From assembly GCA_951406725.2 (NCBI GenBank), contig OX597833.1, positions 69,192,001 to 69,256,000 on the forward strand: a stretch of 64,000 nt of DNA, read 5' to 3'. Both the position numbers and the translations under genes were made by a program. This DNA is from Octopus vulgaris. Taxonomy: Eukaryota. The notes below the pieces were generated by a model. That model did not search any database. It was given only the letters and a program-made list of their open reading frames with translations, and was not told where the DNA came from. Of this stretch, positions 7,674 to 63,615 are shown piece after piece (the stretch's first letter is position 1; each line of letters opens with the position of its first letter).

Positions 7674-8222
7674 CGACGGTGACTCAAAAGGTAATGTCAT
7701 TTTGTTTAGGACAGGTATAATTACCAACGCAGGAACATGTATCATACGTCAAAATGACGCTGGTCCTCTGTGGATCACATCCCTACTTCTCAACAGAGTC
7801 ACCGTTTCTCTCAATAGCAATGTTCCACCTTCGAATGAGAGCATGTATTCTTGCCCTGTAAAATTTTGTTGACTGTTCTTTGAGCCACTTCTTCAATACA
7901 GTTTTCACTTCCTCGTCACTGGAATAATGTTTGCCTCTCAAACCCTCTTTCATGGGACCGAAGAGATGATTGTCCAGTGACGAGGAAGTGAAAACTGTAG
8001 TGAAGAAGTGGCTCAAAGAACAGTCAACAGAATTTTACGGGGCAGGAATATATGCTCTCATTCGAAGGTGGAACATTGCTATTGAGAGAAACGGTGACTA
8101 TGTTGAGAAGTAGGGAATTGATCCACAGAGGACCAACTTCATTTTGAGGTCTGATACCTGTTTCTGTGTTAGTAATTATACCTGTCCTAAACAAAATGAC
8201 ATTACTTTTTGAGTCACCCTCG
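7674..8222. mobile_element. Fold-back mariner-derived MITE made of two inverted 3' ends
   Basis: Inverted arms of about 250 bp, TA flanks, and transposase C-terminus HLFGPMKEGLRGKHYSSDEEVKTVLKKWL...IHALIRRWNIAIERNGDSVEK. Confidence 0.92.
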
Positions 8223-16510: not shown

Positions 16511-16890
16511 AAACGGGCGAAATGCTTAGCAGTATTTCGTCTGTCGCTACGTTCTGAGTTCAAATTCCGCCGAGGTCGACTTTACCTTTCGGGGATCTAT
16601 TAAATAATACCAGTTTCGCAATGGGGTCGATATAATCGACTTAATCCGTTTGTCTATCCTTGTTTTTCCCCTCTGTATTTATCCCCTTGTGGGTAGTAAA
16701 GAAATAGGTATTTCGTCTGTCGTTACGTTCTGAGTTCAAATTCCGCCGAGGTCGACTTTGCCTTTCAGCCTTTCGGGGTCGATAGATAAAGTACCAGTTT
16801 CGCACTGGGGTCGATGTAATCGACTTAATCCCTTTGTCTGTCTTTGTTTGTCTCCTCTATGTTTAGCCCCTCGTGGGCAATAAAGAAATA
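16511..16890 (+). mobile_element. SINE family B tandem dimer, 5'-truncated, with TSD
   Basis: Two units join at TAAAGAAATA|GGTATTTCGTCTG. The direct repeat TATGGTGTCAAAGAAA flanks it at 16498-16513 and 16891-16906. Confidence 0.92.
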
Positions 16891-19391: not shown

Positions 19392-19430
<39 letters not shown>

Positions 19431-19492
19431 TGTATTCATAAATATATATGTATGTATCTACCTATATATATGTATATATATGTGTGTGTCTG

Positions 19493-19523
<31 letters not shown>

Positions 19524-19553
19524 GAAAAAAAGCAACAAGAATAGATCAATATA

Positions 19554-19637
19554 TCGGTACAATTGTTTCGTACGAAGACATCTTTAATAAGGCTAAAAAA
19601 TTGCAGTAAATATAGGTGACTCGTACTCATCAGCCGA
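19554..19637 (-). ncRNA. Type I hammerhead ribozyme motif with canonical core
   Basis: UCGG-CUGAUGA-GUACGA-(loop)-UCGUAC-GAAAC-AAUU-GUA-CCGA. Stem I is UCGG/CCGA, stem II is 6 bp, stem III is the palindrome ACAAUUGU, and the cleavage triplet is GUA. Confidence 0.75.
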
Positions 19638-20875
19638 AAAAACATCTGAGATTCCCAAACATCAAAGGGGGTGATGTTACACTCGTGAAACATCATGGAA
19701 AGTTCTATAAAAATGAGATTTAGATAACAAATTGGTTTCTAAAAGTTCTATTAGTATTACACAGTCATATATCAGGTTTTTAAAAAACCTCTTAGTTTTC
19801 CAGAAAGTGAAAATGGAAGTGAGGGTGTGAGTTTATCCATATTGAAGAAAGTTTGATTCCTGGAGACTGATGAGAGGTATCGTACTCACAGAATATGTGT
19901 TTGTCCATATATAGTTCATAGTATATAGTTCATGTGTGCTCGTGTGTGTACGTGTGTGTGACTGTGCGTGCTTGTGTGTGTCTGTTGTTTACATACCCAT
20001 CCTAATTCCTTTCTTGTTGTACTACATGTTTACATAAGTGTATTTTCTTTCTTTCCATTTCATGTGTCATTGCGTCATTTCCCGTAGTTTTGACCGTAAT
20101 TTCTACTAGAGAGAGAAGTCTATAAGCTGATATCTTGAAATCTTTATATATCGTGTGTGAATAAAATCCACACCAACACTTCCAAGCATCAATTTAATAT
20201 GAACTGTTATAAACCGCAACATAAGGGAAACAATGCTTTGATTTAGATGTGGTAATCTCGCACTAAAGTTAAATTTCTCTCGGAATCGAGAGCTTCAGAA
20301 TCACGAAGACAATTAAATACCTTAACGTTATCGCCACTCTCCATATTAATAACGGTATCATTACTGATTTTAATTACACTAATGCCATGGAATATAGTAA
20401 TGAAGTGGCAATCAATACATCAGTTCAGTGAAATCATGGTCGCCCATCTTCCTTTAAGATAATTAATTTCAAAGATTACGTCAAATGCTACATGGCAAAG
20501 GTCTTCTCTTCATATTTTAATCAAAAGGTAAAATTCTCCGATGTTTCACTTCAGTTTCTTTTATGCGGTTTTCGGATTTATCAAAATCAAAATATGTCTA
20601 GTGTGATATCTAAAGAATATTAGTGGCAGTCCATAATAACTCGTAAAACTTTTTGAAAAATTACTTTGTGCAATACAATAGGGCAGAGCGCTTTCACCTA
20701 ATTCGTTGTTTCTAGTTTACATTCTGTTATTTTGATTAAGAACCATGGAAATTAAAACCGATTGAATGCCACCAAGTACCTCCTAACCATTTATAATTTT
20801 AGGAAATAGATGAGTATTTTCATCACCGTAACTATCATACCGATTTCCACACTTGGGAAAAGTTAATTTTCTGGA

Positions 20876-23361: not shown

Positions 23362-23405
<44 letters not shown>

Positions 23406-23419
23406 ATATGTGGCAATTA

Positions 23420-23555
23420 GTTGGTTGTCATAATAAAACTTAGAGTTTTGGATACCGGGACTGGATCCTGCTCCGGCATCTATCCTGATGAGATGTGGGA
23501 ACAGACTTCACCCCCAATATCCGAAACTCTGAATTTCATTATGATAACCAAAGAA
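23420..23555. mobile_element. Penelope-like pLTR remnant with degenerate hammerhead and partial inverted copy
   Basis: Plus strand CUGAUGA-GAUGUGGG...CCCAAUAUC-CGAAACUCUG. The 23420-23455 segment is an inverted copy of the 3' half. Confidence 0.5.
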
Positions 23556-23645
23556 ATGTCACATATTATATCTATAAATAAATTCCTCTATTTTTCATAA
23601 TATTGAGGTCTCGTTCAATCTTTTGTTATCATATTTTTATTATTA

Positions 23646-23699
<54 letters not shown>

Positions 23700-54596: not shown

Positions 54597-54876
54597 ATGT
54601 ATTTTCATATTTGTTTTTATATTGTTATATATCAAAACAATTTCACATTATACTGAAGAATACATAATTTTTAGCAGAGGCGTGACAGAAATATATATTG
54701 TCTTCCCTTTATTACTCCCTATTTCCCCACTTGGGTTAATATCTTAATATCTCTATCCCCCTCTCTCTTTCTTCTTCTCTCGTATTACTCTTCCTCCTCT
54801 CTCTCTCCCTCCAACTGCGTCTCTTAATTTCCCTTTATACATACATACCTATATATGAATGTATGTACGTACGTAC

Positions 54877-54931
<55 letters not shown>

Positions 54932-54965
54932 GATGGATGGATGGATGTATATATGTATGTATGCA

Positions 54966-55330
54966 TGTGGAAGAGAGTGTAATTCGGCAGGAGGACTTAA
55001 ACGACATGCAAAGGTACATGAAGCCCAGTTACAACTACAGCCGGCTATTACCTGTAAAGGTTTTAGTTGCCAATTCTGTACAAGACATTGTAGATCTTTA
55101 GCTGGGCTAAAAAGTCACATTCGATTACAGCACCAGTAACAGTTAAGCTTCGTGCAATGGCCATACTCGATAACGAGGGGGCAGCCATAATGCACGTATG
55201 TATGTATGTATGTATGTATGTATGTATGTATGTATGTATGTATGTATGTATGTATGTATGTATGTATGTATGTATGCATGTATGTATGTATGTATGCATG
55301 TATGTATGTATGTATGTGCGTATGTATGTA
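54966..55330 (+). mobile_element. LINE 3' end (RTE-like) with two C2H2 zinc fingers and (TATG)n tail
   Basis: [18 protein letters not shown]...CQFCTRHCRSLAGLKSHIRLQH*, a short UTR, then long (TATG)n. No splice acceptor is present upstream, only microsatellite. Confidence 0.65.
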
Positions 55331-60306: not shown

Positions 60307-60716
60307 AGGTGGCGAGCTGGCAAAAACGTTAGAGCGCCGGGCGAAATGCTTAGCGGTATTTCGACTGTCGTTACGTTCCGAGTTCAAATTCCACTGAGGT
60401 AGACTTTGCCTTTCATCCTTTCGGGTCGATAAATAAAGTACCAGTTTCGCACTGGGTCGATGTAATCGACTTAATCCCTTTGTCTGTCCTTGTTTGTCCC
60501 CTCTGTGTTTAGCCCCTTGTGGGTAATAAAGAAATAGGTATTTCTTCTGTCGTTACGTTCTGAGTTCAAATTCCACCGAGGTAGACTTTGCCCTTCATCC
60601 TTTCGGGGTCGATAAATAAAGTACCAGTTTCGCACTGGGTCGATGTAATCGACTTAATCCCTTTGTCTGTCCTTGTTTGTCCCCTCTGTGTTTAGCCTCT
60701 TGTGGGTAGTAAAGAA
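60307..60716 (+). mobile_element. SINE family B tandem dimer with TSD
   Basis: Full monomer plus head-less unit. ATATATTATTTAAAAA is duplicated on both sides (about 60292-60307 and 60718-60733). Confidence 0.93.
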
Positions 60717-61074
60717 TATATATTATTTAAAAACTGCAGAAAGACGAGATTTAAGTGAAGGAAACATACACCAAATTCAGAGATGTAAATATATAGAGAA
60801 GGATAGCTATATGTGTGTGTGTTTGTGTTTGTGTGTGTGTGTTTGTGTTTGTGTGCGTGTGTGTGTGTATGGAAGAGCCGCTGATGAGTTAACAATATAC
60901 TATACAGTGCGTGAGTTTCTATGGCAAAATAAATTGATCATCCTGAAATATGATAATTAACGAAGGAAGCCAAACATTATCTGCAGTGTCGCTAAAACAG
61001 CTCTTTATTATTTTCACACTGCCTTCTGCGCATGCGTGATTATAGCTAATTGATGTCACATTAAACGTCTTGAG

Positions 61075-61530
61075 GTCTATCATCTTTTGCTCGATCACAA
61101 CAACAATGAGGGCGAGGAACTTTTGCGCAGGATAATCACAGCTGATAAAACGTGGATTCATTATGAGGCTATATACGAGAGACATTACGGAGTGGGAAAA
61201 TCCTGGCTCGCCAGCGACCAGGAAATTCATAACAAAGCCTTCTACGAGAAAGGTGTTGCTAACCTTTGTTGGGGATTCAAAAGGGCCTATACTGGAAGAC
61301 TACCTAGAAAGAGGTATACGATCAACGGCGCACGATACGATACGGTGCACGAAGCCAGCAATTCGCACCAAACGCCGAAGCATATTGTCGAAGAAAGTCT
61401 TGTTGCATGACAATGCACGTCCACACACGGTCGTCCAGATCAGTGAAACCATTAACCATTTGGGTTTTGAGGTGCTGGAATACCCTGCCTACAGCCCAGA
61501 TTTCACCCCTTCTGACTATCATATCTCTGG
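61075..61530 (+). mobile_element. Mariner transposase pseudogene fragment (DDD catalytic domain)
   Basis: Frameshifted LRRIITADKTWIHYE / KVLLTFVGDSKG / LLHDNARPHT / LGFEVLEYPAYSPDFTPSDYH. Confidence 0.9.
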
Positions 61531-61735
61531 AAAGCCTGCCTCCCATTAGTTCATGAGAAAAAAACCATTGAAAAGCAGGCGCTAAAATTGAAAACGGTTA
61601 AAGTGTATAGAAAAAAAAAACGTTCATCTCACCAAATATGTTGTGGTCTGCTTCGCGCAGTCCCGGTTATTTCATGAGGTCAATGTTCGCTTTTCAGTGG
61701 ATTTTTTCTCATCAATTAATGGGATGCAGTCTTTC
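61531..61735. mobile_element. Small MITE-like element with ~45-bp imperfect TIRs
   Basis: AAAGCCTGCCTCCCATTAGTTCATGAGAAAAAAACCATTGAAAAGC versus the reverse complement of 61689-61734. Confidence 0.55.
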
Positions 61736-63512: not shown

Positions 63513-63615
63513 GACACCTGAAGAAGGCTGGAGGGTGTATCAGCCGAAACTATGTGATAACAACAAACAAGATGAAGACAAATATCCGTCAAATGTAAAT
63601 AATGTAAATAATGTA
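63513..63615 (+). mobile_element. Penelope-like pLTR remnant with degenerate hammerhead, same family as 52365-52449
   Basis: GACAC-CUGAAGA-AGGCUG GAGGGUGUAU CAGCC-GAAAC-UAU-GUG followed by ACAAGATGAAGACAAATATCCGTCAAATG. Confidence 0.6.

Follow-up and report, generated by a model that had tools for sequence, protein, structure and literature searches.

The window analysed here, a 64-kb stretch of Octopus vulgaris DNA, carries on its minus strand a genuine type I hammerhead ribozyme motif (19554-19637) with a fully intact catalytic core, embedded in a repeat copy of ~410 nt (19515-19923, minus strand) that ends at a (TA)n microsatellite. This repeat is probably the 3' end of a Penelope-like element (PLE), truncated on its 5' side at insertion into (TA)n, and the lone copy in the window is predicted to be largely inactive. 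The hammerhead itself is of a known kind, that of PLEs, and is modestly unusual in one trait, a long stem II arm that is missed by Rfam.

Structure of the hammerhead motif

When the minus strand is numbered as a hammerhead, each catalytic position is found in the sequence: the first half of the core, C3-U4-G5-A6-U7-G8-A9, lies at 19633-19627, followed by the G10.1-C11.1 pair (19626/19570), G12-A13-A14 (19569-19567), A15.1-U16.1 (19566/19559), C15.2-G16.2 (19565/19560) and A17 (19558). The motif has the conserved core of the type I class (C3-A9, G12-A14 and A15.1-U16.1), a base other than G at position 17, and three stems of 4, 7 and 2 bp (the last reaching 8 bp as a dimer), with stem I left open-ended. 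Stem I consists of four Watson-Crick pairs (19637-19634 with 19557-19554), and by the same numbering cleavage is predicted to follow GUA, with 19558 and 19557 on either side of the cut. A sequence-only reading of this DNA, which had proposed the intact core, a 4-bp stem I, this cleavage position and adjacency to (TA)n, was borne out on all of these points, the array beginning ~32 nt beyond stem I. Its description of the other two stems needed adjustment. Stem II, given as 6 bp with a loop of ~45 nt, does contain six Watson-Crick pairs, but the descriptor match adds a G-U pair to make 7 bp (19620-19626 with 19570-19576), and the insertion between the strands measures 43 nt (19577-19619, with UUAGCC inside it). 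The 8-nt palindrome proposed as stem III is likewise present (in 19559-19569, which also takes in G12-A14), but by folding energies it yields an 8-bp duplex only between two copies (-6.4 kcal/mol), whereas a single copy retains 2 bp and a 4-nt loop (+2.4 kcal/mol).

A generic type I descriptor gives a single match, this motif, in the whole 64-kb window. Among 300 dinucleotide-shuffled windows, none held an arrangement with stems I and II of at least 4 bp and a short stem III, while the loosest setting gave 54 matches in the 300; the descriptor thresholds were chosen only once the motif had been seen. The sequence-only reading had also called for a search against hammerhead models, in which the core and the three-stem topology do align to Rfam Hammerhead_1 (RF00163), but the 14.2 bits obtained (E=1.1) fall short of the gathering score of 34. 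The alignment spans model positions 1-45 and omits 47 nt of stem II, and the motif does not appear in the listed part (150 of 388) of the whole-window Rfam matches. Since Rfam gives no more than 14 bits to a hammerhead that is complete but has a 43-nt arm, ribozyme counts in genomes of this kind are likely too low. A score so far under threshold, together with a fold z-score of only -1.41, would suit a chance arrangement of short boxes; we hold this to be vanishingly improbable, given the result with the shuffled windows, the changes tolerated among relatives of the motif and its PLE-type context.

The window is AT-rich, with 123 tandem-repeat rows, and other hammerhead-like sites occur in it. 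Positions 63518 (plus strand) and 52444 (minus strand) mark two copies of another hammerhead-bearing repeat, identical at 79 of 92 nt, in which an extra base after A9, a 6-bp stem II and an 8-nt loop are typical of minimal PLE hammerheads; each of these minimal motifs is altered at 15.2 or 16.2. An insert of ~240 nt between two (TA)n arrays (23410-23645, plus strand, core box at 23485) holds a hammerhead-like motif that has decayed; its stem III resembles, by eye, the Hydra-clade type, and Rfam gave no hammerhead match at 23400-23650. At 60881 (plus strand), CUGAUGAG precedes what may be a 5-bp stem II around ~65 nt, with GAAG in place of GAAA; this is possibly another decayed long-arm motif, or else chance. 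The string CTGAYGAR occurs at 11 sites in the window against 5.8 expected, a number reached by 5 of 100 shuffles, and this mild excess is compatible with scattered ribozyme relics. Repeats of other kinds include tandem dimers of a 183-184 nt SINE-like repeat (16532-16890 and 60355-60716), which we take to be of octopus type, and a near-perfect inverted repeat with 46-nt arms (7878-8018), possibly a miniature transposon, that also gives a sub-threshold match to a microRNA precursor.

A repeat family with variable ends and inverted junctions

The bounds of the repeat copy were set by the points at which related contigs diverge from it. Behind the ribozyme lies a U-rich tail (19515-19553, minus strand), marked by contig loose ends before 19526 in three runs (X1, X2 and X6), which passes into a (TA)n-rich microsatellite (19393-19522, no strand) found by tandem-repeat scanning and likely to have been the insertion target. 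The cleavage site is 43 nt from the 3' end of the copy. Closeness of the hammerhead to the 3' end is a PLE trait, and insertion at (TA)n, another, is seen both at the window junction and in one X2 contig. Upstream of the ribozyme is a non-coding part that resembles a 3' UTR (19638-19866, minus strand), with no Pfam match and no protein relatives. Two further repeats were noted: an 11-bp inverted repeat inside the element (19672-19695), which contains several listed variants and may not be conserved, and a 12-nt direct duplication across the upstream end of the element (19908-19933), which we do not read as a target-site duplication since no match was seen at the other end.

Of the 24 listed runs, 20 (from 8 studies and two organisms) contain part of 19530-19900. 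Four runs (X1, X2, X6 and X13) were compared over 19523-20875 as assembled contigs only, which are unable to show RNA ends and whose depth was not taken as copy number. Run X1 contains pieces differing by 1 to 24 letters over about 90-260 nt, and X2 one piece with 28 differing letters in 206 nt; such differences exceed the allelic range, and the repeat therefore exists in several diverged versions, close relatives of the window copy showing 6-7 differing letters in 313 nt. One contig from X1 and two from X13 match the window up to 19916-19923 and then diverge, which suggests that the window copy is cut short there and that the family continues upstream; there was no contig cover from the four runs over 20029-20875. 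At the opposite end, an X1 loose end before 19526 agrees by eye with the window at 9 of 10 letters (19515-19524) and then continues for at least 20 nt, a lower bound, as loose ends are shown to 30 letters only, and an X2 contig has its 3' end in (TA)n ~5 nt before the end position of the window copy. Three or more 3' ends are thus present in the family, two at (TA)n.

The contigs also contain inverted junctions. A joint that leads from plus-strand 19569 to minus-strand 19866 is present in three of the four runs (X2, X6 and X13) and in both organisms, and represents an inverted copy of the last part of the ribozyme and its tail, head-to-head with the repeat body; a loose end behind 19651 in X6 is, by eye, arm sequence of the ribozyme strand and marks a second, different inversion. 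An adjacent inverted and 5'-truncated copy is typical of PLEs, as described in parts of PMC8557442 and PMC3846280, and this configuration is found in the repeat family but not in the window copy. It is distinctly unlikely that the form with the 19569/19866 joint instead spreads as a single unit, a non-autonomous mini-element bounded by inverted ends, and that the window copy is a longer relative of it. Although an identical joint with the same neighbouring changes in three runs and two organisms would fit such a unit, a single shared locus explains the identity equally well (contig depth giving no copy number), the second junction points to fresh inversions at each insertion, and the window copy is without the joint. 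The inverted-end form starts directly after a second core-like box (19867-19891, minus strand), which matches the first half of the ribozyme over 9 nt directly and over 8 nt in inverted orientation; both matches together were seen in 2 of 20000 shuffles, in a test picked after the fact. The box may be a decayed opposite-strand hammerhead or the relic of a snap-back junction, and Rfam gave no hammerhead match at 19800-19960.

One feature that counts against a PLE origin, the 2-bp stem III closed by a tetraloop, is also the hammerhead build of non-LTR retrozymes, which consist of head-to-tail repeats of 150-450 bp with a ribozyme in each and produce abundant, highly self-paired circular RNA, as set out in parts of PMC7229834 and 10.64898/2026.07.22.740005. 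The window copy might accordingly be read as a solo unit of such a non-coding tandem repeat, whose RNA would be cut, circularised and re-inserted with borrowed PLE enzymes. The element is non-coding with a GC content below 45%, carries a type I hammerhead, has a size near 150-450 bp (PMC7229834), and solo copies are among those counted in 10.64898/2026.07.22.740005. We nevertheless regard this origin as unlikely: the 64-kb window contains no second copy of the motif and no tandem array or head-to-tail copies; the only joint listed across the four runs is an inversion rather than a head-to-tail one (a head-to-tail unit above ~520 nt could escape); the family reaches past both ends of the 410 nt; self-pairing of the element is not unusual (z -0.37, with 32 of 100 shuffles as good); and stem I has 4 bp, without the 6-bp build that gives loop contacts.

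No PLE reading frame was linked to the element, so that its placement among PLEs rests on architecture. Partial tandem copies of the kind that forms direct pLTRs in PLEs are absent from the 64-kb window. Pfam was run on 223 of the 438 filtered frames of the window, namely 89 stop-free frames of at least 45 aa at 12-27 kb and 134 frames of at least 70 aa elsewhere, and returned no reverse transcriptase or GIY-YIG match in either the nearby (0/89) or the distant set (0/134); a 410-nt stump is itself too short to hold the frame for both. We also considered whether the element might be the end of a PLE protein, but its two searched frames yielded no relatives, the 37-aa frame having no protein match among 1.84 billion representatives and the 45-aa frame no candidate relative among longer proteins; both frames are short and broken by a 1-nt indel at 19866, and these blank searches are therefore weak. 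A frame opening at an AUG within the core, the arrangement in the anole element, was rejected because relatives disrupt it, by eye, with a +1 insertion near 19595 and with U7C. Elsewhere in the window, Pfam identified a broken DDE transposase (DDE_3, E=9e-6, 61054-61549, plus strand), C2H2 zinc-finger matches (54828-55136, plus strand) and six further matches that are weak and unrelated.

Pattern scanning for relatives gave no match in metagenome contigs and none in viral contigs. A looser scan gave one match in metagenome contigs and none in viral contigs; the single match (L001), which comes after a long unrelated frame, pairs over 3 bp in stem I and adopts a different fold, was treated as chance. 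Five short motif strings and one string from the tail of a relative were absent from the supplement of PMC8557442, in which line breaks could hide matches, and a literature search that extended to neither Repbase nor Dfam found no description of this repeat family or of cephalopod hammerheads. A recent repeat annotation of Octopus vulgaris reports 31 recently active PLE families, with ribozymes unmentioned in the available part of that source (PMC13282606).

The stem II arm, predicted folding and activity

Among the substitution rows listed (40 of 64), 16 fall within 19554-19637, at 12 of the arm's 43 places and 4 of the 41 remaining ones (Fisher p=0.051; p=0.33 once places closer than 31 nt to the contig end at 19554 are set aside). 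Every listed change is present in a contig at 31 or more letters from an end, places near contig ends apparently going unlisted, and the second half of the core is therefore poorly tested. The four listed changes outside the arm comprise U7 to C at 19629, a free position and the sole change in the first core half among the rows listed, two changes in stem II (19621 and 19623) that each leave the pair as G-U, and one in loop III (19561), where a partner change preserving the palindrome could escape listing. All six listed indel rows within the motif fall in the arm. These comparisons suggest a weak signal of conservation outside the arm. In one X2 contig, phased by eye on equal depth and with 18 of its 28 differences listed, stem II is longer and the inner hairpin is perfect over 7 bp; one X1 contig, likewise phased by eye, completes a 5-bp CAUCU/AGAUG helix in which the window copy has a mismatch. 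Since the hairpin and helix are complete in these contigs, the 43-nt "loop" is likely a structured arm in relatives that has decayed in the window copy, whose inner hairpin is broken. The sequence-only reading was about right on the length of this insertion, but it took for a loop what appears to be an arm in relatives, and it missed the larger repeat around the motif.

The intact core bases might also be explained by a working ribozyme that the host has kept and that cuts a long transcript through the locus. This is very improbable. An intact core is to be expected without selection when so few letters (6-7 in 313 nt) separate the copy from its relatives; moreover, the inner hairpin of the arm is broken, the predicted fold is inactive, and no host exon was found among the Pfam-scanned frames.

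Folding energies, which disregard tertiary contacts, magnesium and co-transcriptional folding, give a predicted share of active monomer of 2.5e-4 for the 84-nt motif; adding flanks lowers it to 5e-7 to 1.6e-6, and within the whole 409-nt element it is 1e-7. These low shares arise because both UUAGCC in the arm and the box at 19867-19874 pair with the catalytic core: in the free fold the core pairs with UUAGCC instead of forming the ribozyme, and the box pairs with it at probabilities of 0.84-0.87 at 9 of 10 positions and 0.65 at the first. A double hammerhead is predicted at -28.4 kcal/mol, against -36.8 for the free cofold and -27.2 for two free monomers, and the active fold is not favoured in prediction as monomer or as dimer. 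Efficient cleavage at this locus is, on these models, unlikely. The sequence-only reading had argued from the intact core to likely activity and had ranked the motif as the best candidate in the window for self-cleavage. It is indeed the sole full-descriptor match, but the predicted free fold contains no ribozyme, the window offers no second copy, and PLE hammerheads tested elsewhere were silent, weak or dependent on protein (PMC4209133, PMC11167929). A minimal PLE hammerhead from schistosomes showed no cleavage as a monomer and weak cleavage as a dimer or trimer in the part of the work that reports these assays (PMC4209133), while the anole PLE ribozyme, in the corresponding part of PMC11167929, cleaved only with the element's protein and was dispensable for in vitro insertion, and public reads showed no RNA ends from it. 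These published tests agree in direction with the inactivity predicted here. Against it stands a coral retrozyme hammerhead, which is described as cleaving well as a monomer (PMC7229834).

The history that we favour, and hold to be likely, is that a nick in (TA)n served as the starting place for reverse transcription of a PLE transcript, with synthesis beginning just downstream of the ribozyme and stopping after ~410 nt. The element's GIY-YIG endonuclease would nick AT-rich DNA, here (TA)n, and its reverse transcriptase would begin a little past the ribozyme and stop early, leaving a stump; AT-rich targets are described for PLEs in part of PMC11167929, and an optional tail of 30-40 bp and a (TA)n bias for PLE insertions in part of PMC8557442. 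Where full-length copies stand in tandem, the palindromic stem III would let two ribozymes pair and, probably aided by the element's protein, cut after GUA, giving unit-length RNA from read-through transcripts. At the locus in the window there is no partner and no linked frame, and the core is predicted to be held by UUAGCC of the arm or by the box at 19867-19874. We infer the PLE assignment, the route of insertion and the role of the ribozyme from published families. A more elaborate possibility, which we consider doubtful, is a switchable hammerhead held off by arm and box until the element's protein or a second copy refolds it, with the inverted-end form spreading alone; if this were true, some PLE clades reported as hammerhead-less or half-core would carry complete long-arm ribozymes that are invisible to Rfam and to the customary descriptors.

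Comparison with known elements

Hammerheads at PLE ends number in the thousands in animal genomes, so that a single further copy changes little. The natural variants of this family, with the arm intact or decayed and the core-blocking box present or absent, are of modest use for asking how PLE ribozymes function and why, in one tested case, the element's protein is required.

Animal non-LTR retrozymes, as described in parts of PMC7229834 and 10.64898/2026.07.22.740005, resemble the element in being non-coding and AT-rich and in having a type I hammerhead with a 2-bp stem III; they differ in that here there is no tandem array, no head-to-tail joint was seen, self-pairing is not strong and inverted junctions are present. 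The type I hammerheads in the pLTR or 3' end of EN+ PLEs, in the part of PMC4209133 that describes them, share with the motif a stem I of 4-5 bp, a stem II of 7-8 bp, G10.1-C11.1 and a palindromic stem III, and they likewise occur mostly as single, dispersed, truncated copies, with opposite-strand pairs 100-700 bp apart. By comparison, the motif is without the extra base between 9 and 10.1 that is usual in minimal PLE hammerheads, a point against its assignment to PLEs, and it has the 43-nt stem II insertion and no linked frame found.

Judged by build, the nearest described group appears to be the Hydra clade, which is defined by its protein, with RWK and DKT motifs, a CxCX5C linker and no CCHH; no such protein was linked to the element here. 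The Hydra-clade PLEs described in PMC8557442 share the (TA)n target, a ribozyme that lies behind a non-coding 3' region and near the 3' end, a near-palindromic stem III, and cleavage after GUA in 12 of the 26 rows tabulated there; one listed family has an inverted 5'-truncated copy, and Penelope-2_NV has the same four stem III pairs as the motif with two more bases between them. In all 26 of those rows, however, loop 2 measures 3-10 nt (43 nt in the motif) and stem III 9-10 nt (8 nt in the motif), and the ribozyme sequence of Hydra-1_Obim (from Octopus bimaculoides), as printed in the same source, differs from the motif by eye. A bias towards (TA)n is common to Hydra, Neptune and Naiad elements, and the (TA)n junction therefore does not tell these clades apart.

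A precedent for the long insertion is given by the PLE-X1 elements of spike-moss, with a loop 2 of 35 and 29 nt (PMC8557442). In PLE-X1 and in the Naiad elements that the same source labels HHR_half_core, the halves of the core lie far apart, as they do here, and standard descriptors miss them; eight Naiads carry this flag in the part concerned, and Naiad_Ovul combines a half-core with a preference for (TA)n, while the 3' end given for Naiad_Obim is unlike the sequence in the window. In contrast to the half-core Naiads of that description, the motif reported here has both halves of the core and all three stems complete, and given such a complete long-arm hammerhead, the half-core PLEs are worth re-examination.
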